From Waddliaceae bacterium (GTDB lineage: Bacteria; Chlamydiota; Chlamydiia; Chlamydiales; JABHNK01), in assembly GCA_018694295.1 (NCBI GenBank), contig JABHNK010000006.1, forward strand, positions 318-64,317: DNA of 64,000 bases, written 5' to 3'. A program made the position numbers and the translations under genes. The notes under the pieces are model-generated. The model had not been told where the DNA came from, made no database searches, and was given only the letters and a program-made list of their open reading frames with translations. The stretch's first letter is position 1; every line of letters begins with the position of its first letter. This document shows, piece by piece, positions 1 through 18,146 of the stretch.

Positions 1-747
1 TTAGAAGTTGTGGAAGCGTTAATTGGCAAGGATGCCAAGGTTGATGAGCCTGATAAAGACGGCTTCACCCCTCTTTTTGTAGCAGCCCAGAATGGTCGCG
101 CAGAAGTTGTGAAAGCGTTAATTGCCAAGGGTGCCAAGGTTGACAAGCCCAACAACAGCGGTCGCACCCCTCTTTGGATAGCAGCAGAGGATGGTCGTGT
201 AGAAGTTGTGGAAGCCTTGGTCGGAGGGGGAGCTTCGCCCGACAGGTGCAGTAGACGCGATGACAATCCTTTTTTGTTGGCGGTAAACAACGGTTCTGAG
301 AAGATTATGGAAATTTTAGCGAATGCTTTAATCACAAAAAAAGGGTCGATTGACAAGCCTGATAAATACGGCCAGACTTTTCTTGGGCTAGCGGCTCGTG
401 CTGGCCATAAAGGTGCTGTAGAATCTTTAATCGACAAGGGCGCATCAGTTGACAAGCGTGATCACAAAGGTCGCACCCCTCTTTGGGTAGCAGCAGAGAA
501 TGGTCATGAAGGTGTTGTAAAATATTTAATCGAAAAGGGCGCATCAGTTGACAAGCGTGATCACAAAGGTCGCACGCCCCTTATGTTAGCGGTTCGTCAA
601 GGTCATAAGGGTGTTGTGGAAAAGTTGATAAGGAATGGTGCTGATGTTGGAAAAAGATCTTTCTTGGGCACTACACCGCTAAAAATTGCTTTAAAGAGTG
701 GCTATACAGAAATCGCCGACCTCTTACGCGAGGCCGGAGCCCAGTAA
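1..747 (+). CDS. Ankyrin-repeat protein, 5' end outside the window
   Basis: The frame is already open at nt 1 (LEVVEALIGKDAKVD...), so the track start at 10 is only the first in-window GTG. Tandem ~33-aa units carry the ANK signature G-x-TPL-x-x-AA-x-x-G-h-x-x-VV-x-x-LI-x-KGA-x-VD. Confidence 0.85.
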   Translation, partial: LEVVEALIGKDAKVDEPDKDGFTPLFVAAQNGRAEVVKALIAKGAKVDKPNNSGRTPLWIAAEDGRVEVVEALVGGGASPDRCSRRDDNPFLLAVNNGSEKIMEILANALITKKGSIDKPDKYGQTFLGLAARAGHKGAVESLIDKGASVDKRDHKGRTPLWVAAENGHEGVVKYLIEKGASVDKRDHKGRTPLMLAVRQGHKGVVEKLIRNGADVGKRSFLGTTPLKIALKSGYTEIADLLREAGAQ

Positions 748-1221
748 TAAAGCAGCATTCTTTTTCAAAAAAGCCTTTTTCCAATGGTAGTTGTCCAATA
801 TTCCCGTGGTGTCGCGTCCTAGGATGCTATATGCGACGTATAGCGCTTCTACTGAGGCGAGGCCTGCTTCGGGGTCGGGGCATTCCGTCTGGCATCGCGG
901 GTATGCCGTGGTGTAGCCTTCGGGAAGGCGGCGCCGTGGGATATCGCGAAATTCTGTGGTGTTCTCTACCATTTTCTGTGCATAGCGCCATGTGCCGTCG
1001 ATGAGGACGACGCCTTTGTCACCATCTTTTTCAGAGAGCTCTTCGCCGTCAAGAGACAGAAGTACGTATTTATTGAAGTCGATATCGCCGAAGTCGGGAA
1101 TGGGATACCTGAAGAAAAGCATGTCATCACGCTCCTCGAGGCCTCGAAGAGAGCATTTTTTTAGGTTTTCCTTGCGATGACGAAGGATAATGGTTGGCGG
1201 AAAAGATGGTATCATATACAA
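724..1221 (-). CDS. DTW-domain protein (tRNA-uridine aminocarboxypropyltransferase family)
   Basis: 165 aa. LIDGTWRYAQKM contains the D-x-T-W signature of DTW-domain (TapT/DTWD-like) proteins. The 3' end overlaps the convergent ankyrin gene by 24 nt. Confidence 0.6.
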   Translation of the reverse strand: MYMIPSFPPTIILRHRKENLKKCSLRGLEERDDMLFFRYPIPDFGDIDFNKYVLLSLDGEELSEKDGDKGVVLIDGTWRYAQKMVENTTEFRDIPRRRLPEGYTTAYPRCQTECPDPEAGLASVEALYVAYSILGRDTTGILDNYHWKKAFLKKNAALLLGSGLA

Positions 1222-1291
1222 AAGATTTGATGGTAATATAACGTATTATACCTCATCGAAGAGTTTTGTTACAAACTATAGGAGAGTCGCA

Positions 1292-2329
1292 ATGAAGAAG
1301 ATTATAACTATGATGTCAGCGGTGTTATGCCTTATAGCATATGGCGCCTATGCTGAAGATGGGAAAATAGCATGGATTGCCGACTATGACGAAGCTCTCG
1401 ACATAGCACGTAACGACGATAAGCCTCTCTTTATCTTCTTCAACGGCGCCGACTGGAGCGAGTGGTGCGAGAAGCTCGAAGAAGAAGTCTTTAAAACCAC
1501 GGAATTTGTCGAAGACACTAGCGACGCCTTCATCTTCGCTAAGATAGACTTCCCCAAAGATAAAAGCATCGCCCGCGAAGACCTTGCTAATAACAAAGCT
1601 GTAAGGGAAAAATTCAACGTCTCATCATTCCCTACCGTCGTCGTCGTCGATAGCGAAGAACGTAAAGTCGTTGTCATGGGATACCGCCCCGGTGGCGGCA
1701 AGGAATATGCTGATGCTCTATTAAGAAACTGGGAAGAATACTCTACGCTGGCCAATGCCGTCAAAGATATGAAAAACACCCGACTAACGACGAAGCAACT
1801 AGAAGACCTTTTCAAAGAAGCTAAAGCTTTCGGCGCCGAAGAATATGCCGATATGTTCATCGCCGAAGGCATAAGACGTATCGACAACGCTTTCTTCTTG
1901 CTAGAGAAATACCGTAGCAACGTACAGAATGGCAATATCGACGATATCGATGTAAGAGCATTACGGAATATCCTCGCCGAAGACAACCCCAACAACGAAA
2001 ACAACGTACAATATAACCTCGCCGTAATAGACTTCCAGGCGCGCATTGCCGGCGCCACAGCAGGGGATATCGATAAAGCACTAAAACCATTGATAACATA
2101 CCTCGATACCTTCGGCGCAGAAGATCGAGAGACAGCATGGCGCGTGACAATGACGATAGCACAGGTCTTCCACGACAATAATATGATAGAACAAGCTCTG
2201 AAATATGCACAGACATGCTACGAAACAGCACCCGAAGATATGAAAGACCGTATCGCCGAAGCGATAGATTTCATGGAAAAAAGCTCACCAAACACCAAAA
2301 TCAAAGAACTTACACTGCTTGAGCAGTGA
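1292..2329 (+). CDS. Secreted thioredoxin-fold protein (Thioredoxin_7/DUF255-like) with helical C-terminal domain
   Basis: I prefer the in-frame ATG at 1292, which has GGAGAG just upstream. It yields the signal-peptide-like MKKIITMMSAVLCLIAYGAYA. DDKPLFIFFNGADWSEWCEKLEEEVF resembles the thioredoxin-fold active-site region but has WSEWC instead of CxxC. Confidence 0.6.
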   Translation: MKKIITMMSAVLCLIAYGAYAEDGKIAWIADYDEALDIARNDDKPLFIFFNGADWSEWCEKLEEEVFKTTEFVEDTSDAFIFAKIDFPKDKSIAREDLANNKAVREKFNVSSFPTVVVVDSEERKVVVMGYRPGGGKEYADALLRNWEEYSTLANAVKDMKNTRLTTKQLEDLFKEAKAFGAEEYADMFIAEGIRRIDNAFFLLEKYRSNVQNGNIDDIDVRALRNILAEDNPNNENNVQYNLAVIDFQARIAGATAGDIDKALKPLITYLDTFGAEDRETAWRVTMTIAQVFHDNNMIEQALKYAQTCYETAPEDMKDRIAEAIDFMEKSSPNTKIKELTLLEQ

Positions 2330-2563
2330 GTTCGGAGTTCGGAGTAGGATTTTTCTACCACGGAGCCACGGAGGACACAGAGAAAAAGAACTGGCTGGGG
2401 GATTCCCCCAGGCCCCCATTTCTGAACGGTTGAATGGCGATCTTTTTAAAATTTTCGGGGTTCTAGGGGTGACACCCCTAGCTAGTGCTGTTCTTCACTT
2501 TTTTTTAAACTTTTGTTCTCCGTGTCCTCCGTGGCTCCGTGGTAAAAAATCGGAGTTTGGAGC
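2330..2563 (+). repeat. Family-A composite palindromic element, full copy A1
   Basis: Starts 1 nt after the stop at 2329. Layout: GTTCGGA GTTCGGA tail, AGGATTTTT, CCACGGAG-CCACGGAG-GACACAGAG arm, hairpins CTGGGGGATTCCCCCAG and CTAGGGGTGACACCCCTAG, then a mirror arm TTCTCCGTGTCCTCCGTGGCTCCGTGGTAAAAAATC. The arms are near-perfect reverse complements over about 38 nt. Confidence 0.85.
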
Positions 2564-2567
2564 TTTT

Positions 2568-2915
2568 TTACTGATCAGTGATTATTGACTTCAGATCACT
2601 GGCGATGTCGGAGGCTGAGGCATTGTGAGCTTTGGAGCGTGGGCGGACATTGACGACGAGGCCTTTGGGAAGCTCGTGCTGCATAAGACGGAACGCCTCA
2701 CGGACAAGACGTTTGAGCCTGTTGCGTTGATGGGCTTTGCCATAGCGGCGGGAGACGGTAAGCCCAAGGCGTGGTAGTGAAGAAGAGCTCTCGTCGATAT
2801 AGACGTCAGCGATACAATATACGCCGACGCGCCTGTCACCCTTGCGTGATATCATACGATATTCTCCGCGAGACACTACACGTAACAGACGAGAGAAAAA
2901 GAACCTTAAACTCAT
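2568..2915 (-). CDS. rnpA: Ribonuclease P protein component
   Basis: 115 aa and basic. [17 protein letters not shown] matches the RNase P protein RNR motif region. It lies immediately downstream of rpmH, the canonical arrangement. Confidence 0.85.
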
Positions 2916-2929
2916 GATTGCGGCCTAGG

Positions 2930-3064
2930 TTAGGCGCTTAATGTCTTGCGGCCTTCTCTGCGACGGCTGTTGATAATCTTTCTGCCGCTGGCGGTTTTCA
3001 TGCGTGCACGGAAGCCGTGTTTTGCTTTGCGACGAAGGTTGCTTGGTTGATATGTTCGTTTCAT
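2930..3064 (-). CDS. rpmH: 50S ribosomal protein L34
   Basis: Not in the ORF track (<60 aa). Hand translation gives [44 protein letters not shown] then stop: 135 nt, ATG at 3064-3062, TAA at 2932-2930. Confidence 0.95.
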
Positions 3065-3242
3065 TGTGGTATTCCTTTAAAATGATATATATAAAAACAA
3101 TACGAAACTATAACCGATATCATGAATATTTCTCAAGAAAATAAAATATCTTCTCTCTACAGAGAAAAACGTTGAAAATAAATTGCTCTACATGTTATCA
3201 CTATACATTAACTTTTTACATTTCTGAGGACGGAAAAGAACA

Positions 3243-3407
3243 ATGAAAGTACGAGCATCAGTAAAAGCCGACCCATCTAAAGGGGATAAGGTTGTACGGC
3301 GCAAAGGCCGTGTATATATCATCAACAAAAAAGACCCACGTCGCAAGCAGCGACAAAAGGGTCCTGCACGAGTAACGCGAGTAACGCGACCAACGCGAGC
3401 AAATTAA
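3243..3407 (+). CDS. rpmJ: 50S ribosomal protein L36, Cys-less chlamydial type, with a repeat-derived C-terminal tail
   Basis: Not in the ORF track. Translates [54 protein letters not shown]. The first ~42 aa match the non-zinc L36 form I recall from Chlamydia. rpsN follows 17 nt downstream. Confidence 0.9.
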
Positions 3408-3424
3408 GGGAAAATAAAGACACT

Positions 3425-3730
3425 ATGGCTAAGAAATCTTCGATAGCAAAACAAAAAAGACGTGAGCGCCTTGTGCAGCTCAAATGGGAGAAGCGACAGG
3501 GGCTTAAAGCTCTTATCAAAAATCTAGATACCACTCCTGAAGAACGCTATGATGCGCAGGTGACTCTTAATAAGATGTCGCCTAATGGATCGACAGTTCG
3601 CCTACGCAACCGCTGCCAGATGACTGGACGCGCCCGCGGTAACCTCAACAAGTTCAAGATCTCGCGAATATGTTTCCGCGAACTTGCTTCACGAGGGATG
3701 ATACCAGGAGTGCAGAAGGCAAGCTGGTAA
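3425..3730 (+). CDS. rpsN: 30S ribosomal protein S14
   Basis: 101 aa. [14 protein letters not shown]...[43 protein letters not shown] is the canonical long-form S14. Confidence 0.95.
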
Positions 3731-3759
3731 CCACAACGAAATACTTCTTTATAGAAGGC

Positions 3760-3802
3760 GCCAAGACAGCAGAATTCCACCTGTTTGTCTTGGCTTTTTT
3801 TT
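3760..3802 (+). terminator. Rho-independent terminator after rpsN
   Basis: GCCAAGAC(AG)...(CTGTTT)GTCTTGGC stem followed by T8 (3795-3802), 30 nt after the rpsN stop. Confidence 0.7.
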
Positions 3803-3838
3803 ACATATGATTTATAAAAGATCGAAAAGCTCGAGGAA

Positions 3839-4135
3839 ATGATTATGGATGCTCTTGGAGAAGTGGGATATATTGAAGAGCTTGCGTCACGTAATGCAGC
3901 AGCAATAGAAGCAGACGCTCAAGAACTTCAGGTTGTTGAAAAACCTGATCCCGCTGTTCCTGCTTTTGTTCCAGATGTTCCTGAAACAGATAGATCGATT
4001 CAAAAGACTGTATTAAGAATATTTGAAAGATACATAAGAAGACCATTGGTATCTTGTTTGGGATCGTTAAGGCAACGTGGCGTAAGAAAACATGCTACTC
4101 AAGAACTTCAGGTTGTTGAAAAAGGACTGAAATAG
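3839..4135 (+). CDS. Hypothetical protein containing a 26-bp perfect direct repeat
   Basis: 98-aa ORF with no recognisable domain. QELQVVEK is encoded twice by identical DNA (3918-3943 and 4098-4123). Confidence 0.35.
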   Translation: MIMDALGEVGYIEELASRNAAAIEADAQELQVVEKPDPAVPAFVPDVPETDRSIQKTVLRIFERYIRRPLVSCLGSLRQRGVRKHATQELQVVEKGLK

Positions 4136-4193
4136 ACTAGACTTTGAGAAAAGCGACTATTAAGAGAATAACAAACTACAAGGAGATATTACG

Positions 4194-4778
4194 ATGTCGA
4201 AATTATTTTTCCGCCACGGCGCCATGGGTAGCAGCAAGACCGCTAACGCTCTGATGGTACAATACAACTACAGTGAGAAGGGACAGAATGCTGTGCTGTT
4301 CAAGCCCGCCACAGACACACGCGATGGTGTCGCTGCCGTGAAGTCGCGGATGGGACTCGAAGCCAATGCTTTCGTAATACAAAACAACGATAATGTAAAA
4401 GATATGATATCCTCCATGCTCAAAGAAGGTGAAACAATAGACTGTATCATCGTCGATGAGTCGCAGTTCCTCACCGCCGACCATATCCTACAGCTTAGCG
4501 AGGTCGTCGATGATATCGATATCCCCGTGATATGTTACGGACTCAGGACAGACTTCATGGGAAACCTCTTCGAAGGCAGCAAAAAGCTTATGGAGTTTGC
4601 TAACGTCATCGAAGAAGTCAAGACGATATGCTGGTGTGGCAGTAAAGCTATAATGAATGCACGAGTCGTCGATGGCAACGTAGTAAAACACGGAGAACAG
4701 ATACAGATTGGTGGTAACGAATCGTATGTAAGCCTATGCCGCAAACACTGGAAGTCAGGAAAGCTAGGCGAGCATTGA
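4194..4778 (+). CDS. tdk: Thymidine kinase
   Basis: 194 aa with a P-loop (GAMGSSKTANAL), VDESQFL, and the C-terminal zinc-ribbon pattern ICWCG...LCRKHW typical of type II thymidine kinases. Confidence 0.9.
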   Translation: MSKLFFRHGAMGSSKTANALMVQYNYSEKGQNAVLFKPATDTRDGVAAVKSRMGLEANAFVIQNNDNVKDMISSMLKEGETIDCIIVDESQFLTADHILQLSEVVDDIDIPVICYGLRTDFMGNLFEGSKKLMEFANVIEEVKTICWCGSKAIMNARVVDGNVVKHGEQIQIGGNESYVSLCRKHWKSGKLGEH

Positions 4779-4797
4779 GATGCGGCTACGCCGAATA

Positions 4798-5094
4798 GTT
4801 CGGATTTCGGAATAGGATTTTTGCCACAGAGGACACAGAGGGATCACAGAGGATACACAGAGAAGGCGGCGGAAGGGCTAGGGGTTTCACCCCTAGAACC
4901 CCGAGGATTTTAAAAAGTTCACCGTTTACCGTTCAAAAACGGGGGTCTGGGGGAGGTTCCCCCAGCCATATTCTTTTTTTCTCTGTGAGGCCTCTGTGGT
5001 TCCTCTGTGTCCTCTGTGGCAAAATTGGGGTTTTAGCTTCGGAATTCTGTTCCGAACTCATTGAGCATTGAGCGCTCTCTGTGGTAAAAAAAAC
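4798..5094 (-). repeat. Family-A element, full copy A2 (core inverted relative to A1)
   Basis: GTTCGGATTTCGGAATAGGATTTTTGCCACAGAG GACACAGAG...CACAGAG arm, then CTAGGGGTTTCACCCCTAG, CCGTTCAAAAACGG, CTGGGGGAGGTTCCCCCAG, four CTCTGTG units, then CCGAAC/CATTGAG heptamers and a terminal CTCTCTGTGGTAAAAAAAAC. Confidence 0.85.
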
Positions 5095-5111
5095 AATGGT
5101 GAGTAATACCT

Positions 5112-6188
5112 GTGGATAAAAAAAAGAAAAAAACAGTAGTAGTTGGGATGTCGGGGGGAGTCGACTCCTCGGTGGCGGCGCTTATCCTCAAAGAGCAAGG
5201 ATATAACGTCATCGGCATGTTTATGAAAAACTGGGACGATACCGCCGACGAAGAATGTCCCGCCGCTGAAGACCACGACGATGTCGTAGCAATATGCGAG
5301 CAGATAGATATACCTTTCTATACCGTAAACTTCACGAAAGAATATTGGGATAACGTCTTCGAATCGTTCCTAGAAGACTGTAAGAAGGGGATAACACCAA
5401 ACCCCGATGTCCTATGCAACAGAGAGATAAAATTTAAGGTCTTCCTAGAAAAAGCAATGGAACTCGGCGCCGATTACCTCGCTACAGGACACTACTGCCG
5501 TAACATCATCGTCGATGGCAAAAATATGCTCGCCAGAGGTGTCGATAACAACAAAGACCAAAGCTATTTCCTATACACAATAAAAAGCGCGATATTAGAA
5601 AAGGTGCTGTTCCCCATAGGAGAGCTAAAAAAAGATGAAGTGCGACGTATCGCCGAAAAACATGACCTGGCGACAGCAAAAAAGAAAGATAGCATGGGGA
5701 TATGCTTCATAGGGAAACGCAACTTCAAAGAATTCGTAGGGAAATATCTAGGATTCTCGAAAGGGGAATTCCAAAAACTCGACGGCACAATCGTAGGAAA
5801 TCACGACGGTATAGCATATTACACAATAGGACAACGTAAAGGCCTCGGCATCGGTGGACCAGGAGAACCTTGGTTCGTAGTAGAAAAAGATCCAGAGAAG
5901 AATGTCGTATACGTCGAACAAGGAGAAGATCACCCTGCATTATATAGCAGCAAACTTACTGCTAAAGAAATATCGTGGGTAGGGGATAAACCAAAAACTA
6001 TTCCATATAAATGCACCGCTAAAATCCGATACCGACAAGCCGATGCACCATGCACCATCACAATATTATCAGACCATGAGGTAGAGGTGGAATTCGACGC
6101 CACACAAAAAGCCGTAACGCCAGGACAGTCAGTCGTTTTCTACGACGGCGAGCTTTGCCTCGGCGGAGCGGTAATCATTGGACATTGA
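5112..6188 (+). CDS. mnmA: tRNA-specific 2-thiouridylase
   Basis: 358 aa. The PP-loop [15 protein letters not shown] and conserved blocks [18 protein letters not shown] and GICFIG are typical of MnmA. GTG start. Confidence 0.95.
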
Positions 6189-6228
6189 ACAGTTATCATT
6201 GATCATTGATAAGTGAGTTTGAAAAAAT

Positions 6229-6277
6229 GTTCAATGTTCAATGTTCAATGTTCAATGTTCAATGCTCATTGTTCAAT
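6229..6277. repeat. Heptanucleotide tandem array (GTTCAAT)5-GCTCATT-GTTCAAT
   Basis: Read directly. It is preceded by CAGTTAT CATTGAT CATTGAT units starting right after the mnmA stop (6188). Confidence 0.9.
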
Positions 6278-6280
6278 GAT

Positions 6281-6307
6281 ATGTAATGCAGCTGTGCTGC
6301 ATTACAT
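6281..6307. terminator. Perfect 12-bp hairpin between convergent mnmA and lpdA
   Basis: ATGTAATGCAGC-TGT-GCTGCATTACAT. The 3' arm contains the lpdA stop codon (6302-6304). There is no U-tract on either side, so terminator function is uncertain. Confidence 0.45.
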
Positions 6308-7693
6308 ATGAATCGCTTTCTCATGGGCGGCTAAGGCTGCCTCTTTTATTGCTTCTGACAGCGTGGGGTGTCCGTGAACGGCGTCGCCGATGTCTTTTAT
6401 TGTCGCCTTACGTTTTATTGCCATGATGCCTTCGCCGATGAGTTCTGAGGCATGGGGCCCGAAGATATGCATCCCTATAAGCCTGTCGGAGTTCTTTTCT
6501 CCAATGACTTTCACTATGCCTTCAGTTTCTCCTGAGCATCGCGCTCTGGCATTGGCCTTGAAGGGGAACGTCCCTATTGTTATTTCTAGCCCTGCTTTTA
6601 TTGCCTCTTCTTCGTTGAGGCCTATGCTAGCGACTTCGGGGGTAGTATATATTATGTTGGGGATGGCTAGGTAGTTGACGGAGGCTTTTCCTCCAGCGAT
6701 TATCTCGGCAGTAGCAACACCTTCTTCCGAAGCTTTATGGGCGAGCATAGGACCTTCGATGACATCGCCGATGGCGTAGATATTACTCGTTGACGTCCTG
6801 AAGTTCTCATCTACGGTAAGGAATCCTCGATCGGTAGGCTGTATACCGATATTTTCGAGCCCGAGGTTTTTGGTGTTGGGAGTTCTTCCAACAGCGACGA
6901 TGACGACGTCGCCAGAAAGGAGAGTGCTTTGTTTGTCTTTAGTCGTTATTAGCGAGACGTGCCCTTCGCCGACCTTTCCTCTGGTGACTTCTGTCGCCAT
7001 AGAAAAAGAGATGCCTTGCTGTACAAGAGACTGTTGTAGCATCTTTGCGATGGCGGAGTCGCATCCAGACCCTATAGTGTCGAGGACTTCAACGACGGTG
7101 ACTTCACTGCCAAGCCTGTTGTATATCGATGCCATCTCAAGGCCTACGGCGCCGGCACCGACGATGATAAGACTTTTAGGTATCTCTTGAAGGCTCAAAG
7201 CTTCAGTAGAAGATATGACGTATTTACCGTCGAAAGGAAGGAATGGAAGCTCTGCAGGTTCAGAACCCGTAGCGACGATGATGTTGTCGATATCAATCTG
7301 CTGGTCGCTGTCGGCGATCTTTATTGCGAATTGCGACGCTATATAACCTTTACCCGTTATCACGTCGACATTGTGACGCTTAAGAATTCCGGCAACGCCT
7401 TCAGTAAGACCAGCAACGACCTTGTCTTTGTGTGACATCATAGTTTTTAGATTGGCAGTGAGACCCGAAGCTTCGATACCCATAGCCTTGCCATCGCGGG
7501 AAATTTTGTCGTAATATCCAGTACTGCTTAATAACGTCTTCGTAGGGATACACCCTACGTTGAGGCATGTGCCTCCAAGGGTTTCACGTTGTTCGATACA
7601 GACAGTGCTGAGGCCTAGCCGTGCACAGCGTATAGCAGCAACATATCCTCCAGGGCCTCCGCCGATTACAGCGACATCGTAGTTACTTTTCAT
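6302..7693 (-). CDS. lpdA: Dihydrolipoyl dehydrogenase (E3)
   Basis: 463 aa with the FAD motif VIGGGPGGYVAA, the redox-active GGTCLNVGCIPTK, and the C-terminal HGHPTLSE interface motif. Confidence 0.9.
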   Translation of the reverse strand: MKSNYDVAVIGGGPGGYVAAIRCARLGLSTVCIEQRETLGGTCLNVGCIPTKTLLSSTGYYDKISRDGKAMGIEASGLTANLKTMMSHKDKVVAGLTEGVAGILKRHNVDVITGKGYIASQFAIKIADSDQQIDIDNIIVATGSEPAELPFLPFDGKYVISSTEALSLQEIPKSLIIVGAGAVGLEMASIYNRLGSEVTVVEVLDTIGSGCDSAIAKMLQQSLVQQGISFSMATEVTRGKVGEGHVSLITTKDKQSTLLSGDVVIVAVGRTPNTKNLGLENIGIQPTDRGFLTVDENFRTSTSNIYAIGDVIEGPMLAHKASEEGVATAEIIAGGKASVNYLAIPNIIYTTPEVASIGLNEEEAIKAGLEITIGTFPFKANARARCSGETEGIVKVIGEKNSDRLIGMHIFGPHASELIGEGIMAIKRKATIKDIGDAVHGHPTLSEAIKEAALAAHEKAIHM

Positions 7694-7712
7694 GACACAT
7701 GGTCTCCTAATG

Positions 7713-8945
7713 TTATAGTTCTAAAGCTAAAGATGCAGGGTTTTCAAGGATCTCCTTGATGTGCGTCAAAAATGTTACGGCCTCTTTACCGTCGACGATA
7801 CGATGGTCGTAGGTGAGGGCAAGGTACATCATATCCCTGGCGACGATGGCACCGTCGATGACGACAGGGCGCTTCTGTATAGTATGCATCCCCAATATAG
7901 CACACTGTGGAGGATTGAGGATAGGCGTCGACATCAGAGACCCATAGACACCACCATTGGTGATGGTGAAACCTCCACCCTGAAGGTCTGAAACGTCGAT
8001 GGCGCCATTCTCGGACTTGACGGCATAGTCGATGATGCCGTTCTCGATGTCGGCGAACGACATATCATCGCAGTTGCGTAAAACAGGGACAAAGAGCCCG
8101 CGACTAGTTCCTATTGCGATGCCAATGTCGTAGTATTCTCTCGTTACTATGTCTTCACCGTCGATATAAGAGTTTATCATAGGAAACGTTTCTAGCGCCG
8201 AGACAGCAGCCCTTACGAAGAAAGACATAAACCCTAGCTTCGTGCCATGCTTAGCTTTGAAGGCCTCCTGGAAGGCGCTTCTAAGCGTCATGATCTGTGT
8301 CATATCGACTTCGTTGAACGTCGTAAGCATAGCAGCCTCGTGCTGCGCCTCGACAAGACGCGAAGCGATGACACGGCGTATCTTCGACATCTTCTCCCGC
8401 GATTCTTTGCGTTCCCCAGCGTTGCGCTTTACGGCCTTCCTAGGAGCAGGAGGCACCATATTTTTCTGTGGGGCTTCGGCAGCCTTAGGCTCTTCTTGTT
8501 TTTTTTGCTCTTCAGACTCCTGCGCAACAGGCTTCTGCTCTTCTTCGTCGTTGGGAGATAGAAGATCGTCGAGGAACCTGCCTTTGTCGATACGAGAACC
8601 TTGCTGTTTTGTGTCTTCTAAGGTTTTGTTTTCTTCTTCTGATGGTTTTTCTACCATTATAACCTCTTGTTTTTGTTGTGTATCGTTAACTATGGCGGGA
8701 GCTTCGGCGTGGGCGCTATCGACATGACCGATGACCTGTCCTATTGTGACGGTGTCGTCGACGTTGACACTAAGGGATAGCTTTCCAGCATGGGGAGCAT
8801 ATAGAACCTGGTTGACCTTGTCGGTCTCGAATTCTAAAATCTCTTCATCCTCTGCGACGAAAGCTCCAGACTCTTTTAAGATGGTGCTCACCGTAGCTTC
8901 TGTGATGGATTCTCCCATATGCGGGACTTTTATTTCGGACTTCAT
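7713..8945 (-). CDS. sucB: Dihydrolipoyllysine-residue succinyltransferase (E2 of 2-oxoglutarate dehydrogenase)
   Basis: 410 aa with an N-terminal lipoyl domain (EFETDKV), an acidic/Pro linker, and a catalytic domain ending [17 protein letters not shown]. Lies between sucA and lpdA. Confidence 0.9.
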
Positions 8946-8966
8946 AATTTCGTTGTTCCTTAGTTT

Positions 8967-11849
8967 TTATCCTCGTACGTTGTGGCTTCGGGATACGGTG
9001 ATTATCTCTTCATCAATATCGCCGAATATAGCACGCATAATTTCTGCACCCTGTTTTTTGTGGAGGGCATAAGACCCCGCCGCTGGCGAAGCGCTGCGCT
9101 CCCTGCCGACATACGACAGCGTAGTGCCTTCGGGGATGATATCATTGAGCTGTGGACGCATGAAGTCCCACGCACCCATGTTGCTAGGCTCGTCCTGGAC
9201 CCACAAGATTTTTTTGCATCCACCATAGGCGCCTATTGCAGACTTGATCTTATCGATATTAAGAGGGTACAGCTGCTCAAGGCGTAATATCGCCGTGGTT
9301 TTGTTGTTGAAATTCTTACGCTCGGCGATGAGGTCGTAGTATATCCTGCCACTGCATAGTATCACCTTAGAAGCATTGCTAGGAGGCTCGGGGTCAGGAA
9401 GGACCTCTTCGAAAGTTCCTGTCGCTAGGTCGTCGAGGCTGCTAACACATCCGGGATATCTAAGAAGACCTTTCGGAGTGAAGACAATAAGAGGTTTCTT
9501 GATGGTTCGCAGCGCTTGTCGGCGTAGGAGATGGAATAGCTGCGCTGGAGTCGTAGGGTTTGTGACCTGGATGTTTAGGTCGCCGGAAAGCTGAAGGAAA
9601 CGCTCTATCCTCGCAGAAGAATGCTCAGGACCCTGACCCTCATAGCCGTGAGGAAGGAACATCACAAGGTTGGAGCGTACGCCCCACTTCTGCTCGCTAG
9701 TAGCGATAAACTGGTCGATGACTATCTGTGCGCCGTTGCTGAAATCTCCGAACTGTGCCTCCCAGATGACTAAAGCATCGAGATTCGCAGCACTATACCC
9801 ATATTCGAAGCCAAGGACGCCGAACTCCGAAAGGGGAGAATTGAATACTTCAAAAACGCCCTGTCCCTTCCTAAGATGCCTTAAAGGGAAGTATCGTAGG
9901 TTTTTTACTTGGTCGGTCCATGAAGAATGCCTGTGGCTGAAAGTTCCGCGTCGTGAGTCCTGACCAGAAAGCCTAATGTGGTGCCCTTCATTGAGGAGCG
10001 ACGCCATAGCAAGATGCTCGCCCATTCCCCAGTCGATGCTCTTGACGTCGGAGCCTTCTTGGACCATCTCAAGCCTGGAAGTAATGAGATTTATAAGCTT
10101 CTTGTGGATCGTCAAACCTTCAGGGACGGTACAAAAAGCTTTGGCGAGGGTGACGATGGTTTTGCCGTCGACACCAGTCTTCGCAGGCTCAAAGAGCCTT
10201 CTCTCAGTGTCGAGGAGCTCTTCGCGGCTGGGCGGCTTCCACGACGGCGTAGCGCTGCCCTCGCTTTCGAGGAACGAAGCCTTGCTGCCTTTAAGAGACT
10301 TTTGTAACGATTCTTTGAACTCTTTCTCGAGACGCTCTGCCATATATTTCTCTATGACGCCAGTAGCGATAAGCTCATCACGATATAATTCGCGGATAGG
10401 CTTTTTCTTCTTGATAAGCTGATATTCTATTGGCTGAGTAAAGGACGGCTCGTCGCCCTCATTGTGACCCCACTTGCGATAACAGTGCATGTTGATGACA
10501 ACGTCGCAATGGAAATGCTGTCTAAACTCCACGGCGAGCATCGTAGCAAAGACACACTCTTCAGGATGCTCGGCGTTGACATGGAAGACCGGAGCGCCGA
10601 AGGTATGCGCTATATCAGAAGAAAAACGCGTAGAACGTCCATTCTTCGGCAACGTTGTAAACCCTATGTTGTTGTCGATGATGACATGTATGGTGCCACC
10701 AGTGCTATAACCTAAAAGGTTGCACATCTGCATCGTCTCATAAACGACGCCCTGCCCAGCAAATGAGGCGTCACCATGGATGAGGATAGGGACTATACGA
10801 GAACGCTCAATGTCGGCGTCACGTTGCTGATGAGAACGTACATACCCCTGGACGACAGGGTCTACAGATTCGAGATGGCTGGAGTTGTCAACAAGACGTA
10901 TACGGGCTTTGTTGCCGCCGGAAGTGGTAACGTCGGAGAAGAAACCTTTATGATATTTGACGTCGCCGCTTCCCTGGAAAAACTCTGGGACATAACTTTC
11001 CTCGAACTGTGAAAATAAGTCGGCATGCGATTTTTGAAGGACGTTGGCGAGGACGTTTAGCCTGCCACGATGCGCCATCCCTATGATGAATGTCTCCATC
11101 CCCAGCGACGTGCCGGATTCTAATATAGCAACTAACAAAGGAATAAGAGTCTCACCACCCTCGATGGAAAACCTTTTCTGGCCGACATATTTCGTATGAA
11201 GGAACGTCTCAAAAAGCTCGGATTTGTTGAGATGGTGGAGGATTAGCTGCTTGTCTTCGATAGTAAGCTGCGGCTTCGAACGTATTGGCTCGAGATGCTG
11301 CTGGATCCATTGCTCTACATCAGGATTGTTGAAGCCCATATACTCGACACCGATATTAGAACAATATGTGTCTTTCAAAGCAGCGATAATGTCGCTAAGA
11401 GGAGCATTGGCGACGTCGAGGATGCCACACGTAGGGAATGTCTCACCAAGGTCTTCGTCGACAAAACCTAGAGCGCTAAGCTGTAGCTGGGGAGCATCGT
11501 CGATGGTGACAGGCTCGGCGGCGACAGGATTGACATCGGCAAGAAGATACCCATATGAACGATATGCGTCGATGAGGCCCTTAACACGCAGACCCTTGAT
11601 GGTATCACCGTCTTCGGCAGAGACAGGCCCAGCGGCGGCAACAGGGACAGCAGCGCTTTTAACGGGCGAGGCGTCATGATTAGAAGAAAAAGCATGACGA
11701 CGAGGAGGAACAGAATTCTTGTCCATGTTAGAAAAAAAATGCCGCCACGACACAGGAACATCACTAGGACTCTTCTGATATTCGACATACAGCTGCTCGA
11801 AAAGCTCGATGTTGGCAGTGTCGATGTTTTGTGGTGTGCCTTCGCTCAT
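8967..11849 (-). CDS. sucA: 2-oxoglutarate dehydrogenase E1 component
   Basis: 960 aa. GMAHRGRLNVL, HGDASFAGQGVVYE and LPHGYEGQGPEHSSAR are hallmark OGDH E1 blocks. Confidence 0.95.
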   Translation of the reverse strand: MSEGTPQNIDTANIELFEQLYVEYQKSPSDVPVSWRHFFSNMDKNSVPPRRHAFSSNHDASPVKSAAVPVAAAGPVSAEDGDTIKGLRVKGLIDAYRSYGYLLADVNPVAAEPVTIDDAPQLQLSALGFVDEDLGETFPTCGILDVANAPLSDIIAALKDTYCSNIGVEYMGFNNPDVEQWIQQHLEPIRSKPQLTIEDKQLILHHLNKSELFETFLHTKYVGQKRFSIEGGETLIPLLVAILESGTSLGMETFIIGMAHRGRLNVLANVLQKSHADLFSQFEESYVPEFFQGSGDVKYHKGFFSDVTTSGGNKARIRLVDNSSHLESVDPVVQGYVRSHQQRDADIERSRIVPILIHGDASFAGQGVVYETMQMCNLLGYSTGGTIHVIIDNNIGFTTLPKNGRSTRFSSDIAHTFGAPVFHVNAEHPEECVFATMLAVEFRQHFHCDVVINMHCYRKWGHNEGDEPSFTQPIEYQLIKKKKPIRELYRDELIATGVIEKYMAERLEKEFKESLQKSLKGSKASFLESEGSATPSWKPPSREELLDTERRLFEPAKTGVDGKTIVTLAKAFCTVPEGLTIHKKLINLITSRLEMVQEGSDVKSIDWGMGEHLAMASLLNEGHHIRLSGQDSRRGTFSHRHSSWTDQVKNLRYFPLRHLRKGQGVFEVFNSPLSEFGVLGFEYGYSAANLDALVIWEAQFGDFSNGAQIVIDQFIATSEQKWGVRSNLVMFLPHGYEGQGPEHSSARIERFLQLSGDLNIQVTNPTTPAQLFHLLRRQALRTIKKPLIVFTPKGLLRYPGCVSSLDDLATGTFEEVLPDPEPPSNASKVILCSGRIYYDLIAERKNFNNKTTAILRLEQLYPLNIDKIKSAIGAYGGCKKILWVQDEPSNMGAWDFMRPQLNDIIPEGTTLSYVGRERSASPAAGSYALHKKQGAEIMRAIFGDIDEEIITVSRSHNVRG

Positions 11850-12033
11850 AATACCCCTAAAATTTCAACCTTTTGCTATATATAATGTATTATACATATT
11901 ATATGTACCTTGAGGAAGAAATATTTTAAAAGATTTTTTTCTTAGATAAGATATAAAAAGATTCACAAAAAATGCAGATTGTGGTAAACGGGTTCTCAGC
12001 AAAAAATAAGATAAGGTTAGCAAAGGAATAAAT

Positions 12034-12486
12034 ATGGGATTACGAAGCGATAGACTTAAAAAGCTCGAGGCAGAACTCGAAGACCTAGAAAATTGGATGA
12101 AACTGGGGCTCGTCCCCAAAGGCGACATAGAAAAACATAAGGAAGAGATCAAGGCAATAAAAGCTAGGGTCAAAGATGAAAAAATACGCCTTAAATCCCT
12201 TAAAGATACCGATGACGATGAAGAGCATGTCGCACCAAGGCGTAATGTCCAGAGGTCGTCTTTTGCCGAAACGGCACCCATGAACGATATGCACGTCGGA
12301 AACGGCAACAGCAATAACAACCACGATGAATCTTCTTCGGATATCGAAGACGAAGCATTCGAAACGCCGGCAAACGACAAAGACAAGGATGATGACGACG
12401 ACGATAGCGATGCCTTCAGCGATAGAGGACGCTTCCGCCGTGGATGGACTCGTGATATCTTAGACCCCGACTCCAATGAATGGTGA
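12034..12486 (+). CDS. Hypothetical acidic coiled-coil protein
   Basis: 150 aa with AGGAA upstream of the ATG. N-terminal heptad-like LKKLEAELEDLENW and a D/E/S-rich tail. No domain recognised. Confidence 0.5.
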   Translation: MGLRSDRLKKLEAELEDLENWMKLGLVPKGDIEKHKEEIKAIKARVKDEKIRLKSLKDTDDDEEHVAPRRNVQRSSFAETAPMNDMHVGNGNSNNNHDESSSDIEDEAFETPANDKDKDDDDDDSDAFSDRGRFRRGWTRDILDPDSNEW

Positions 12487-12522
12487 GAATCACAGGTTGT
12501 CAACTTACAGGGGTGTAGATCC

Positions 12523-13803
12523 TCACTCACTGTCACTGTCACTACCACTGTAATAAGATGCTTCAGGAGAAGGATCTCTAGTAGTAGGCGTTGTGGATAT
12601 TGGATGAGACACGCTGCCCGATGCTTGAGACACGTCGTGAATAGTAGGTTGATACGTTGCTTCTGTATTAATATGATTAATAATTTCATCGAGCTTTCCA
12701 TAGATAATATTCATTTGTCTATGAAAGTTCGTTGTAAGCTTTCCCGATTCTTCTTGGGCTTCCTTAAGATCTTTTCGTAGAGTAGAAAGCTCTTCGGAAA
12801 GACCAGCAGAAGCTAAACATTCAATACCGCTAGTCTTTTCAGAAATACTTTCTTCAAGCGACCGTGTTTTTTCGGCGAGGCTTTTTTCAAGACCATTTAT
12901 TTTTCCAGAGAGACCTTCAAATTGACGAAGAGCGCCTTGTAAAGATTTGATTTCCGCAGAGATTCCTGAAAACTTTGTAGTATCTGTTCCTTTGTAATCG
13001 ACTAAGTCTTTTTTGTGGCTAGCGAGCGCTGTTTGAAGCTGCAGAAGGTCTTTTACTGCAGAGCCCAGAGCTGCTTTATGTTCGCCTGTAAGTCTTTCAA
13101 TTTTATCATCAAGAGTTTTTTGTTGCGCGCCTAAATCGCCGATATCCTTCGCTTTTTCGGATAGCCCAGCATCGATACTTTTCCTTAGACCTTCTAATCC
13201 TTCACTAAGCTTTTTGTCGTCATCGGAAGATTTACTTTCCAAGGCTTTTAAGCGCGCCTCAAGCGGCGCAAGTCTTTGGCGTATAGCTTCGAGATCAGAA
13301 TTGCTGCTGTGGTCATCGGGAGTTTCTGGTAGTTCAGCGATGCTAGCGCGTAGCGAAGCGATCTCAGCACTTAAATCTTCATGGCCGTGCTCAGGGATCT
13401 CTACTGTATCTGATGCCGCAGGTTTTTCAGCAACGGACTCTTCGGGCTTATTTTCTACTTTCTCTGGCGAAAAAAAACTAGGATATATAAAACCAACAAT
13501 AGAGCCGAACAACGTCCCTACAGCAGCTTCCACAGCATAGATGACATGACTTTTGGCGTCTTCATAAGAGCGACGCTCGGAATTGGCCCTGATATTGCAA
13601 AAGGCTACAGCAGAGAATGTGATAACAGCAGCAACAGTATGATATGCCATGTCTATGGCAGAGAAAATAGACTGCGCGAGAAGAGCGACAACACTCGATG
13701 CACCTTTAGAAAGGACAGTTCCTTCGCCGTGTAAATCAGAAATCCAATTTGCAGAGGTCCTGCTTAACGCAAAATCAGTAGATAATAAGTTGACGCTCGC
13801 CAT
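12523..13803 (-). CDS. Inc-like membrane protein (bilobed hydrophobic domain + long coiled coil)
   Basis: 426 aa with two hydrophobic lobes (VVALLAQSIFSAIDMAYHTVAAVITFSAVAF and VIYAVEAAVGTLFGSIVGFIYPSFF) near the N-terminus, followed by ~300 aa of heptad-rich sequence. Paralogous to 14144-15106. Confidence 0.5.
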   Translation of the reverse strand: MASVNLLSTDFALSRTSANWISDLHGEGTVLSKGASSVVALLAQSIFSAIDMAYHTVAAVITFSAVAFCNIRANSERRSYEDAKSHVIYAVEAAVGTLFGSIVGFIYPSFFSPEKVENKPEESVAEKPAASDTVEIPEHGHEDLSAEIASLRASIAELPETPDDHSSNSDLEAIRQRLAPLEARLKALESKSSDDDKKLSEGLEGLRKSIDAGLSEKAKDIGDLGAQQKTLDDKIERLTGEHKAALGSAVKDLLQLQTALASHKKDLVDYKGTDTTKFSGISAEIKSLQGALRQFEGLSGKINGLEKSLAEKTRSLEESISEKTSGIECLASAGLSEELSTLRKDLKEAQEESGKLTTNFHRQMNIIYGKLDEIINHINTEATYQPTIHDVSQASGSVSHPISTTPTTRDPSPEASYYSGSDSDSE

Positions 13804-13831
13804 AACAAAGCCCTCGAAAATAATTGCATAA

Positions 13832-13989
13832 CTGATGTTAAGCGCTAATCTTGCTTTAGTGGTGTAGCGAAAGGGTCAAGATGTAAGTGCTTCCGACGAG
13901 CCAAGCTCTGAAGAGCTGGGCGAGAAGGAATACGCAACAGATTGCTCCTTGTAGCACGCCAATAAAGTGAGAGAAGCTCATAACGTCAG
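13832..13989 (+). repeat. Family-B 158-nt structured repeat, copy B1
   Basis: CTGATGTTAAGCGCTAATCTTGCTTTAGTGGTGTAGCGAAAGG...CCAAGCTCTGAAGAGCTGGG...CCTTGTAGCACGCCAATAAAGT...CATAACGTCAG. Lies 28 nt from the start codon of the minus-strand Inc-like gene, antisense to it. Confidence 0.85.
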
Positions 13990-14143
13990 TGTATAATCAA
14001 CTCCTAACGTTTTATCAAGGATATCATTTTTAACGCAAGAAAACTTTTTATAAAAAGAACCTCAGAAACACCCTAGAAACATATAATAAAAATTTTAAAA
14101 CCTCGAGCACAACGCTTTCGGGAAGTTCTCTGAAAACAGATAA

Positions 14144-15106
14144 TTATCTAAGTATCAAGCCACCCAAATAAGCTATAGTAAGAGCAAGCGAGGGCATTGC
14201 TGCCGCTGCTGTCGTATTAATAGAGCGCCGTAGAGATGACATTGCAACAGTCGCGTCTTCCGAATTTTTAAGAAGTAATTTCATGAGCTCTTCTAAACAT
14301 TTTTTAATATCGACGATGCTAGTTTTAATAGCGACATGACGCTCTTCAACGCTAGCGCTCAGAGCTTTTTTGGAGAGGGCTATAGCAATGGATTCTTCTA
14401 GTGTACTTAATGCTTCAAGCGTGGCTTTAGTCTCAACATCGGCGCTGTCGGCCTTCTGTTCAAGAAGACCATATAGTGGCTTAAGCGCTTCATCGATAGC
14501 AGCTTTTATACCAGCATTTTTTAGAGATTCAACATCTTTCTTCAGCGACGCGATCTCTTTCGCCGTTTTTTCAGCGGTGAGTCTTGCTTTCAGCGCCGGG
14601 AACTCGGCGCGAGCTTTTTTTATGAGACAGTAGTGTAGGCATGCTCTCTGTATCTTAGTGGTGGCTGCTTCTTTTTTTTGTTCAGCTGCTTCAGCACGAC
14701 GCGACACAGCGTCGGGGTCCATGATATCGTAGGGCATTTCTTTGGTATTTATGTGCTTGGCGGCGATGTCCGGCCTGAAGAGGCCTACGAGCGACCCGCA
14801 AGGTATCGCTATGGCGAGAGTTTTGGCGTGTCTAAGGTGTCTCCCGGCAATCTCGGCAGAAAACCGCTCGCCGTTGATATTTTTTACTATCAGGACCTTC
14901 TCGGCGAGAAGTACGGCACCGACGCCGCCGGCAGCGAGAAGATGACATACAGTGTCGATGGCAGCAAATATAGAATATGTCACTGCTGCTACGGCTCTTG
15001 TGGCGAAATGTTTTTGTAGAGACGAAGAGCTTTCATTCCAGTCGTGGATTTTCATGGAAATTGTGTTGCTTAGTGACGCGTCATGTGATATCGCTTGTAT
15101 TTTCAT
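14144..15106 (-). CDS. Inc-like membrane protein, paralog of 12523-13803
   Basis: 320 aa. It shares the SIF(A/S)AID..(C/Y)H..AA motif and the two-lobe hydrophobic layout (AVAAVTYSIFAAIDTVCHLLAAGGVGAVLLA; AKTLAIAIPCGSLVGLF), then has a coiled-coil region. Confidence 0.5.
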   Translation of the reverse strand: MKIQAISHDASLSNTISMKIHDWNESSSSLQKHFATRAVAAVTYSIFAAIDTVCHLLAAGGVGAVLLAEKVLIVKNINGERFSAEIAGRHLRHAKTLAIAIPCGSLVGLFRPDIAAKHINTKEMPYDIMDPDAVSRRAEAAEQKKEAATTKIQRACLHYCLIKKARAEFPALKARLTAEKTAKEIASLKKDVESLKNAGIKAAIDEALKPLYGLLEQKADSADVETKATLEALSTLEESIAIALSKKALSASVEERHVAIKTSIVDIKKCLEELMKLLLKNSEDATVAMSSLRRSINTTAAAAMPSLALTIAYLGGLILR

Positions 15107-15265
15107 AATTACCTCGCCTTGTAAACTATTAATTTAAAAAGATTAGTGTAGCAGATATATGTATTTTTTGTAAGAAAAAAGGACGACGATAACTTTATCC
15201 TTCACTTTTGATAGCGAAATACGATATATATATTCTCTAACATTTACCCTCGGGAGACCAAAACG

Positions 15266-17215: not shown

Positions 17216-17235
17216 ATTAGCGTATAGGAAAAAGC

Positions 17236-17430
17236 AGGATTTTTACCACAGAGCCACGGAGAACACAGAGAGAAAAAAGAATATGGCTGGGGGATTTTCC
17301 CCCAGACCCCCGTTTTTGAACGGTAAACTGTTAATGGTGAATTGCAAACTTTTTAAAATCCTCGGGGTCCTAGGGGTGAAACCCCTAGCCCGCCCACCTT
17401 CCTCTCTGTGTTCTCTGTGGTAAAAATTTC
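17236..17430 (+). repeat. Family-A element, full copy A3
   Basis: Begins about 20 nt after the pkn1 stop. AGGATTTTTACCACAGAGCCACGGAGAACACAGAGAG, CTGGGGGATTTTCCCCCAG, CCGTTTTTGAACGG, CTAGGGGTGAAACCCCTAG, CTCTCTGTGTTCTCTGTGGTAAAAATTTC. Confidence 0.85.
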
Positions 17431-17474
17431 TATTACGAACGCCTAAAAAGATAGGGGATAAACTAGTTTAAAAA

Positions 17475-18146
17475 ATGAAAACGATGCAAAAAAAAGCCAT
17501 AGTAGTACACTCTGGAGGCATGGACTCAACAATATGCCTGGCTCTCGCCATGAAAAAATACCACAACGACGATATCCTAAGCGTAACATTTTCATACGGA
17601 CAACGACACTCCACAGAAATCGATGCCGCAAAAAAGATATGTGAAGACTGGAATATCGATAACAAAATAATACCTCTAGACTTCCTCGCAACGCTGACAG
17701 ACAACGCGCTGATCGGCAACGACACAGAAATACAGCACCCCAAAGAAACCGCTCCCAACACCCTCGTAGTAGGGCGTAACGGCCTGATGGCACGCCTTTC
17801 AGCAATACATGTCAACAGCCTCGGCGGCAACACAATATTTATGGGAGTCGTCTTTCCAGACAACTCGGGATACCGCGACTGCTCACGAGAATATATGGAC
17901 CTCATGGAGCAGATCCTCCGCATAGATCTTGATGACAATACCTTCACAATACAGACGCCACTAGTCACTATGACGAAAAAAGAGACAATAGCACTTGCCA
18001 ACGATCTCAACATCTTGGAATACATCGTTGAAAATACAATAACATGCTACGAAGGCATAAAACACCCAGGTTGCCAAAAATGCCCAGCATGCATACTCCG
18101 CAATAACGGTCTCGCTGATTTTATTGATTCCGATGAAAATCAATGA
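17475..18146 (+). CDS. queC: 7-cyano-7-deazaguanine synthase
   Basis: 223 aa with the PP-loop VVHSGGMDSTICL, the SYGQRH block, and the C-terminal Cys cluster CYEG...GCQKCPAC typical of QueC. Confidence 0.9.
   Translation: MKTMQKKAIVVHSGGMDSTICLALAMKKYHNDDILSVTFSYGQRHSTEIDAAKKICEDWNIDNKIIPLDFLATLTDNALIGNDTEIQHPKETAPNTLVVGRNGLMARLSAIHVNSLGGNTIFMGVVFPDNSGYRDCSREYMDLMEQILRIDLDDNTFTIQTPLVTMTKKETIALANDLNILEYIVENTITCYEGIKHPGCQKCPACILRNNGLADFIDSDENQ

Follow-up and report, generated by a model that had tools for sequence, protein, structure and literature searches.

The subject of this study is a 64-kb window (64,000 nt; positions 318 to 64,317 of contig JABHNK010000006.1, assembly GCA_018694295.1) from a Saanich Inlet metagenome-assembled genome (MAG) labelled Waddliaceae (Chlamydiota), in which tandem arrays of degenerate 7-nt units occur in the DNA between genes. 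These arrays are probably heptanucleotide simple-sequence repeats (SSRs) of the sort that cyanobacteria, Xanthomonas, Bacteroidota and marine Beggiatoaceae have long been known to carry, occurring here in an uncultured marine chlamydia. Four traits of that class are seen in the window: contiguous units, an excess of period 7, non-coding placement with an overlap of a few codons into genes, and a whole-unit change between strains (one event). The kind of repeat is known and the host is new; as far as could be found, it is the first chlamydial case, our literature search having returned no report of heptamer repeats in Chlamydiota.

Intergenic DNA makes up 10.7% of the window (6.8 kb; 34 segments, 6790 nt) according to our own map of open reading frames (ORFs), which was checked against Pfam and against gene calls made on the contig's public copies. 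Exact self-match runs of at least 9 nt occur seven times at period 7 in this DNA, as compared with a mean of 0.048 and a maximum of 2 in 500 dinucleotide-preserving shuffles of it. Runs of the same kind are absent at periods 2, 3, 4, 5, 6, 8, 10, 11, 12 and 15; there are two at period 9, one at period 13 and four at period 14, the last being harmonics of 7. Under a scored definition of an array, seven period-7 arrays are found, six of them intergenic and the seventh covering the last codons of a fliO-like ORF, and zero at any other period that is not a multiple of three. Tandem Repeats Finder (TRF) returned 16 period-7 rows, with copy numbers reaching 7.6 (91% match). Arrays with 2.5 units or more are confined to intergenic DNA or to the ends of coding sequences, and the two-unit arrays found within genes (at 6043, 7323 and 51077) are at chance level. 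The heptamer enrichment is real and far beyond chance. A first-pass annotation of the window had described period-7 arrays as pervading its intergenic DNA, and this holds: every site that it listed was found, those at 22124-22137, 32177-32218, 35028-35076, 53088-53122 and 55124-55158 included, and both the counts of self-match runs and the scored arrays show period 7 to be commoner than other periods not divisible by three.

The trait is lineage-specific, matching the literature on such repeats, since TRF gives 25 period-7 rows per 100 kb of the window, compared with 1.1 for the nearest chlamydial relatives (91 kb) and 1.9 for 78 unbiased mnmA loci of unrelated metagenomic bacteria (727 kb). 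These relatives lack such arrays beside the same housekeeping genes. The window's proteins stand in public records as products of Waddliaceae bacterium MAGs. The same contig recurs in Saanich Inlet samples, and the lineage is isolated, given that its best SucA and MnmA homologues, chlamydial where named, are 56-63% identical. In a metagenome scan with MnmA the nearest match reached 63% identity, and SucA homologues were at most 59% identical, so that no related species with the same spacers came to light.

The primary site lies in the spacer between the convergent genes mnmA (5112-6188) and lpd. The array reported there at 6189-6277 is present, yet its true extent is 6174-6278, starting inside the last five codons of mnmA: 15 heptamers in a single unbroken 7-nt register that spans two arms. 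The left arm covers the final 5 codons and the TGA stop of mnmA, such that the last residues of MnmA (...AVIIGH*) and the TGA are encoded by units 1-2 and the start of unit 3. Between the arms lie ATAAGTG AGTTTGA AAAAATG, after which (TTCAATG)5 opens the right arm. Both arms are mutually complementary, forming a long imperfect hairpin when folded, and each of the convergent genes is trailed, in its own sense, by a CATTGAN array. The 113-nt spacer is wholly composed of heptamers and one palindrome, and the folding of the 147-nt region 6174-6320, arrays and palindrome together, gave z = -6.5.

We counted 17 arrays in all (Table 1). Their units belong to the types NTCAWTG/CATTGAN, CAGTKAY (including TAACTGA on the opposite strand), TCCGAAC, ATAGCGG, GTTCACC and TAAAACC, i.e., at least six unrelated types within 64 kb, and types are also mixed locally. 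The array at 32177-32218 reads CAGTTAT CAGTGAC CAGTTAT CAGTTAT CAGTTCA CAGCTCA. The adjoining genes include housekeeping genes (mnmA, lpd, hflX, ligA and dcd) and an ABC transporter. Many arrays accompany a dispersed element that we call family A, a non-coding inverted-repeat element of about 180-380 nt that resembles MITEs (miniature inverted-repeat transposable elements), forms G+C-rich hairpins and fills spacers right after stops. It consists of arms of 8-9-nt repeats (CTCYGTGG), an A-rich linker and inner G+C-rich hairpins, and its outer tail carries 0-3 TCCGAAC units, sometimes followed by CATTGAG units.

Table 1. Heptamer arrays and associated features of the window (coordinates are those of the window; strand left empty where not assigned).
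Position	Strand	Units or feature	Context
2328-2345	+	(GAGTTCG)2.6	Left tail of family-A copy 2328-2563; begins within the TGA of ORF 1190-2329
4798-4811	-	TCCGAAA TCCGAAC	Tail of family-A copy 4798-5090
4917-4935	+	(GTTCACC)2.7	Within family-A copy 4798-5090
5045-5073	+	TCCGAAC, then (CATTGAG)2	Right family-A tail, 38 nt upstream of mnmA start
6174-6210	+	ATCATTG GACATTG AACAGTT ATCATTG ATCATTG (CATTGAN type)	Primary site, left arm
6230-6278	-	Plus strand (TTCAATG)5 CTCATTG TTCAATG; minus strand CATTGAA	Primary site, right arm
6279-6311		Perfect palindrome, 14 bp, 3-nt loop	Overlaps lpd stop (lpd 6302-7693, minus strand)
17239-17440		Family-A copy with single degenerate tail unit TACGAAC	Tails not obligatory
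22123-22139	+	(ACTCCGA)2.4	Tail-only family-A fragment 22112-22139; 2-nt overlap with TAG of hflX (22138-23445, minus strand)
27822-27852 and 27877-27906		ATAGCGG-type inverted array pair	21 nt upstream of ligA; hairpin, z = -6.1
32177-32218	-	Six CAGTTAT-type units (minus strand TAACTGA)	2 nt past stop of ORF 29934-32174; abuts family-A half copy
32295-32333	+	TCCGAAC, then CATTGAG CATTGAT CATTGAG CTCCGAG	Tail of family-A half copy 32211-32333; 23 nt upstream of ORF 32357
35028-35076	-	(CTCCGAA)2 CTGATAA (ACTGGTC)3 ACTGATC, seven in-register units	Encodes last codons and TGA of FliO-like ORF 35054-35632 (minus strand)
35740-35757	+	TCTGAAC TCCGAAC TA	Tail of family-A half copy 35643-35757; supplies or abuts TAG of dcd (35754-36317, minus strand)
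40416-40430	+	(TAAAACC)2.1	14 nt upstream of giant ankyrin ORF 40445-46918
52577-52590	+	(GAGCATT)2, two-unit CATTGAG array	Independent
53088-53124	+	(CTCCGAA)2 (CCCCGAA)2 CTCTGAA	8 nt past stop of ORF 52654-53079; no family-A arm nearby
55125-55159	-	(TTCAATG)3 TATCATTG TTCAATG	Within family-A copy 54888-55265; polymorphic between strains
55240-55262	+	Degenerate tail TCCTAG TCCGAAG TCCAAAC	Family-A copy 54888-55265

Beyond the arrays themselves, the ATAGCGG-type block at 27822-27854 has a second copy, 91% identical, at 34850-34882, flanked by a radical-SAM gene and the fliO-like ORF, which means that arrays of this type, too, are dispersed. At 4796-4780 (minus strand) and 53120-53140, TCCGAAC arrays end in the same module, GAACTAT-(T/G)CGGC-(G/A)(T/A)AGCCGCA, a short G+C hairpin, which suggests another recurrent building block downstream of genes.

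Resizing in 7-nt steps was observed directly in one case and indirectly in several. Five assemblies over window positions 1-17693 share 99.994-100% identity and have one and the same array at 6174-6278. GCA_018671415.1, a second MAG of this species, shows 99.87% identity over 43243-64000 (20.7 kb, 21 substitutions), and the sole indel in these 20.7 kb removes exactly one GTTCAAT unit, at 55138-55144, as would be expected from the slippage-prone behavior proposed at first pass, for which a comparison of copy number between strains had been suggested. In six further independent assemblies, contigs stop either at 55125/55128 or, up to about 150 nt upstream, at 54979/54991, in the left arm of the family-A copy; a repeat of heterogeneous length would produce such recurrent ends. 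Indirect evidence comes from paralogous arrays at 6244-6279 and 55125-55160, which have the common end (TTCAATG)n-NTCATTG-TTCAATGA and differ in having 5 and 3 units, respectively, from family-A tails, which differ by whole units, and from the 53088 array, where a mutated unit (CCCGAAC) is duplicated next to itself.

The same units form arrays in many other genomes. A scan for (CATTGAN)3CATTGA with one genome per species, whose taxa are a sample and not a census, found (CATTGAN)x4 arrays in at least 120 stretches of DNA from many phyla; the window's own species is not among the matches listed. Most of those listed are from rumen Bacteroidaceae and Prevotella, and others are from Cyanobacteria (Fischerella, Calothrix, Xenococcus, Crocosphaera), Photobacterium and Veronia (Vibrionaceae), Verrucomicrobiota, Ignavibacteria, Acidobacteriota and Pirellulales (Planctomycetota). 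Their loci hold 359 exact period-7 arrays built from 120 distinct units, with types mixed within one array. A changing unit at constant period, which the first-pass annotation had remarked upon, is borne out in the window and is a general property of heptamer-rich genomes. In IMG/VR, (CATTGAN)x4 was present in 66 viral contigs, giant-virus MAGs included, and (TCCGAAC)3 in 14; this database includes prophage-bearing host fragments, so these contigs are no proof of a viral vector.

Placement relative to gene ends is not random. The arrays had been said to start 0-9 nt from stop codons, which is true of seven of the 17, these either overlapping a stop codon or beginning at most 9 nt from one (mean of 2.7 under random placement within the same spacers; P = 0.003); the remaining arrays lie elsewhere. 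Stop-codon adjacency is real but mostly driven by the tail module of family A. Four of the seven stop-adjacent arrays are TCCGAAC/GTTCGGA, a unit without a stop triplet on either strand, and at three genes the end falls exactly on the junction TGA/GTTCGGAG or TA/GTTCGGAG. Only mnmA and the fliO-like ORF take their stop from the array itself. The latter ends in ...GSVTSDQ*, its last codons and TGA coming from (GACCAGT)n, which confirms an earlier remark on the gene at 35054. Start codons show no enrichment: four arrays lie within 40 nt of one, against 3.8 expected, and a proximity to starts of the Beggiatoa type is accordingly rejected.

These observations fit a scenario in which short 7-nt seeds in non-coding DNA would be amplified and resized by slipped-strand mispairing in whole-unit steps, the step itself being shown for one array; slippage probably generated the arrays in general. 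Since 7 is not divisible by 3 and TGA or TAA occurs in many units, arrays would survive only where there is no reading frame. The units TCCGAAC, CATTGAG and TTCAATG would also be spread round the genome as modules of family A. Native spacers appear to be tiny and the longer ones to be made up, for 80-100% of their length, of family A and arrays, so in this compact genome arrays would abut stops or run a few codons into genes; a site preference of the family-A tail on insertion may contribute to the adjacency. Inverted array pairs that extend hairpins (6174-6278, 27822-27906, family-A tails) may add structure to transcript ends.

Several points weigh against this account. Slippage leaves the cross-phylum recurrence of CATTGAN and TAACTGA, as well as the preference for period 7, unexplained. 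The excess of arrays at stop codons beyond random placement hints at an insertion-site preference or at selection rather than pure neutrality. There is also a possible orientation bias: of the co-directional gaps, 24 of 34 in other genomes and five of six in the window have the TGA strand of CATTGAN as their sense strand. This bias is not relied on here, since antisense CATTGAN arrays are open in all frames and absorbable into ORFs, so that crude ORF maps, with 50 arrays classed as lying in an ORF, could produce it. Just one polymorphic unit was seen across assemblies, and no assembly that was read shows any difference in the arrays at 6174-6278, 52577 or 53088, among strains that differ by only 0.01-0.13%. 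Finally, the survey covers 64 kb, one contig of the genome.

The arrays could instead be functional cis-elements, platforms for a putative RNA- or DNA-binding protein that reads 7-nt units, with slippage only tuning their length. This idea, which we consider unlikely, builds on MacGregor's 2015 model of a post-transcriptional regulator and on the proposal of an "unidentified heptamer-binding partner" in the case of Nostoc recF/recO. It would account for the same units being used across phyla, for the possible sense-strand bias of CATTGAN (24 vs 10 outside the window) and for the enrichment at stop codons, and it has a precedent in the altered output of a Nostoc recO reporter upon heptamer deletion (bioRxiv 10.1101/2022.06.06.494920). 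Against it stand the at least six unrelated unit types in 64 kb and the difference in unit number between near-identical strains, and the nearest chlamydial relatives do without arrays at the same housekeeping genes. The absence of a start-codon excess is unlike Beggiatoa, the one TAACTGA array runs antisense to the gene on either side, and a contiguous 7-bp spacing would place successive sites on different faces of the duplex.

A bolder version would have CATTGAN, TAACTGA and TCCGAAC form a functional, horizontally spreading "code", read by a putative transferable binding or repeat-generating factor common to Cyanobacteria, Bacteroidota, Beggiatoaceae, some viruses and the marine intracellular chlamydia, where inverted arrays would build structures of transcript ends or 3′ untranslated regions at stops. 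Room for such speculation is left by the recurrence of the units in many phyla and in 66 viral contigs, by the absence of the trait from the nearest chlamydial relatives and by the stop enrichment; we hold it to be distinctly improbable.

The association with family A raises the question of whether the arrays might be merely parts, target-site duplications or excision footprints of that element. The association itself is real, given that nine of the 17 arrays touch or sit inside copies that take up no more than about 19% of intergenic DNA. Seven of about 11 arms bear TCCGAAC tails, the tail-only fragment 22112-22139 resembles a remnant, and the junctions TAG/TTCGGAG and TGA/GTTCGGAG mark three gene ends. 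Nevertheless, the remaining eight arrays have no family-A arm nearby: they comprise the primary site 6174-6278, 22123 (the tail-only fragment), 27822/27877, 35028-35076, 40416, 52577 and 53088. Arms carry 0-3 tail units compared with 5 in the arm-less TCCGAAC array at 53088, which argues against a duplication of fixed length; the strain polymorphism concerns one internal unit; and the very same unit types are arrayed in Photobacterium, Xenococcus, Pirellulales and rumen Bacteroidaceae. We therefore regard family A as a very doubtful sole explanation. The annotation had offered tails of the element as one reading of the arrays, which applies to about half of them, and had placed such tails on every copy, which is incorrect. 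Nor are arrays always simple parts of family-A termini, and its suggestion of a target or footprint of mobilization has no support, unit numbers ranging from 1 to 5 and arrays occurring in the genomes of other phyla. In copy 2328-2563 the right tail is direct and not inverted. Family A is like MITEs and elements of the repetitive extragenic palindromic (REP) or bacterial interspersed mosaic element (BIME) kind (e.g., Ca. Thiomargarita nelsonii MITEs, PMC4853749) in being an intergenic inverted repeat. Heptamer arrays differ from these systems in also occurring without the element, and neither a transposase nor a fixed target duplication nor a family assignment was established for family A here. 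Between near-identical strains, substitutions cluster inside its copies (35689-35721, 54908-55016, 54980-54984; e.g., 5 in 33 nt) and surrounding genes are identical, a pattern that fits gene conversion among copies.

It is still harder to see the arrays as selected "all-frame stop" modules that halt readthrough or frameshifted ribosomes at gene ends or insulate ORFs, and we find this highly improbable. CATTGAN, CAGTGAC and TAACTGA do, over three units, give each frame a TGA or TAA, an array supplies the stops of mnmA and the fliO-like ORF, and at 6174-6278 a CATTGAN array follows each convergent gene in the gene's own sense. Still, the all-frame idea explains just two of the seven stop-adjacent arrays, and the commonest unit at stops, TCCGAAC (four of seven), is stop-free on both strands, for which reason the function is rejected as a general rule. 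At 32177 the stop-bearing strand is antisense to the preceding gene. Moreover, since the end of an ORF is defined by its first stop, an array "supplying" it is a partly circular notion.

Chance matches or an assembly artefact are refuted, as none of the 500 shuffles exceeded two runs compared with the seven observed and at least five independent assemblies from different samples carry identical arrays.

Other features of the window deserve mention. A second dispersed element, family B (~170 nt), has four copies (13812-14002, 27588-27706, 40219-40409 and 57277-57467; 77-93% identity) and forms a single long hairpin when folded (consensus -71 kcal/mol, one compensatory pair), of which the copy at 27588 lacks exactly the apical part. 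It gave no Rfam match at E<=1, and across the whole window there were zero Rfam family matches at the gathering score. Three family-B copies are just upstream of plus-strand genes (ligA and two giant ORFs). Also upstream of ligA, between a family-B copy and the inverted heptamer arrays, is a near-perfect palindrome at 27714-27772 (28-nt arms, 96% complementary, 3-nt loop).

Very large ORFs are found at 40445-46918, 47026-52494, 57480-64000 (running off the end) and 1-747. Two encode ankyrin-repeat proteins of 2157 and 1822 aa, and a paralogue search with the latter returned none; the third giant frame exceeds 2170 aa and is open at the window end, the gene called there in two other assemblies having no Pfam hit on record. 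Internal 87/111-nt repeats occur at 44253-44919 and in-frame arrays of period 6 (GCCTGA x8.5, 62309-62359) and period 9 (62681-62741) further on. Strains show length variants of the giant proteins (2092 vs 2157 aa; 1817 vs 1822 aa), and a 160-nt tract at 59767-59930 differs from GCA_018671415.1 by ~19 substitutions inside a giant ORF with the flanking 20 kb almost identical, which has the look of a patch of recombination or gene conversion in a gene for a repetitive protein. ORF 35054-35632 (minus strand) matches FliO (PF04347, E = 8e-8) and adjoins dcd and nrdD/nrdG; there are no other flagellar genes in the window.

Heptamer tandem repeats are a recognized but unexplained feature of scattered bacteria. 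Their presence in a lineage of obligate-intracellular type whose sampled relatives lack the trait points to a recent acquisition or to a lineage-specific change in replication or repair. The tight link with a MITE-like element suggests how unit types get seeded round a genome. With the Saanich Inlet time-series metagenomes and metatranscriptomes, unit-number dynamics and transcript boundaries are measurable without cultivation. On the practical side, such arrays break assemblies, as seen in the six that end at or just upstream of 55125, and annotators should expect ORF ends set by repeat units.

The first-pass annotation knew of no described mechanism or function, but a heptamer literature exists (PMC4679880, PMC4692102, bioRxiv 10.1101/2022.06.06.494920) that includes the same stop-codon argument. 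According to Mrazek 2007, as related in PMC4679880 and PMC4692102, heptanucleotides are the commonest long SSR class in many genomes, possibly because a length of 7 nt fits the stretch of DNA within the polymerase and thereby favors slippage. Rehm et al. 2015 (PMC4692102) found heptameric SSRs over-represented in intergenic DNA and repeated that polymerase-slippage hypothesis. In the Nostoc preprint (bioRxiv 10.1101/2022.06.06.494920), heptamer repeats affect recF and recO reporters.

Among known systems, the contingency-locus SSRs (phase variation) of host-adapted pathogens are alike in having short tandem units resized by slippage. Their units are typically 1-5 nt (PMC4692102), and they sit in the 5′ coding part or the promoter spacer of a surface or virulence gene, whereas the window arrays are found after stops and in housekeeping spacers; the polymorphic one is part of a family-A copy that separates two genes, the nearer stop being 129 nt away. 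Among the examples that PMC4692102 cites are the short tandemly repeated repetitive (STRR) sequences, three heptanucleotides in tandem from Calothrix PCC 7601. The host here is no cyanobacterium. In heterocystous cyanobacteria the STRR units are reportedly CCCCAGT, TTGGTCA and CAACAGT, and the canonical window units differ from all three, ATCATTG being one base off a rotation of TTGGTCA.

The heptameric long SSRs (Mrazek 2007; GGGAATC/GGGGAYT of Xanthomonas and Nostoc), to the extent that citing papers portray them, share with the window an intergenic period-7 excess, many dispersed arrays, variation of length and sequence between close relatives, inverted array pairs and a proposed origin in polymerase slippage; the window units differ in being A+T-rich and unable to form G-quadruplexes.

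TAACTGA direct repeats (MacGregor 2015, PMC4679880) were described as intergenic in marine Beggiatoaceae, 15 Cyanobacteria and 5 Bacteroidetes, in sets split by related heptamers, with mixed heptamer arrays in Microcystis and Elizabethkingia, strain indels in Cyanothece mostly of 7-nt increments, and stop codons on the forward strand limiting ORF overlap. The window arrays are alike in their head-to-tail 7-nt units in 2-6 or more copies, their nearly exclusive intergenic placement, the splitting of sets by related heptamers, the all-frame stops on the forward strand and a sporadic phylogenetic distribution, and one of them (32177-32218, minus strand) is TAACTGA itself. Yet Ca. Maribeggiatoa has one dominant unit with related heptamers rarely repeated, while here one of 17 arrays is of the TAACTGA type; Beggiatoa sets are mostly forward and 1 to a few nt upstream of starts, while here stops are enriched and starts are not, and the TAACTGA array is antisense, 2 nt past a stop and 138 nt from the next start. 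The host, a member of Chlamydiota, is outside Beggiatoaceae, Cyanobacteria, Bacteroidetes and Thiocystis. Because unit diversity, the lack of start-codon association and orientation all differ, the arrays are classed as heptameric simple-sequence repeats and not as TAACTGA repeats proper.

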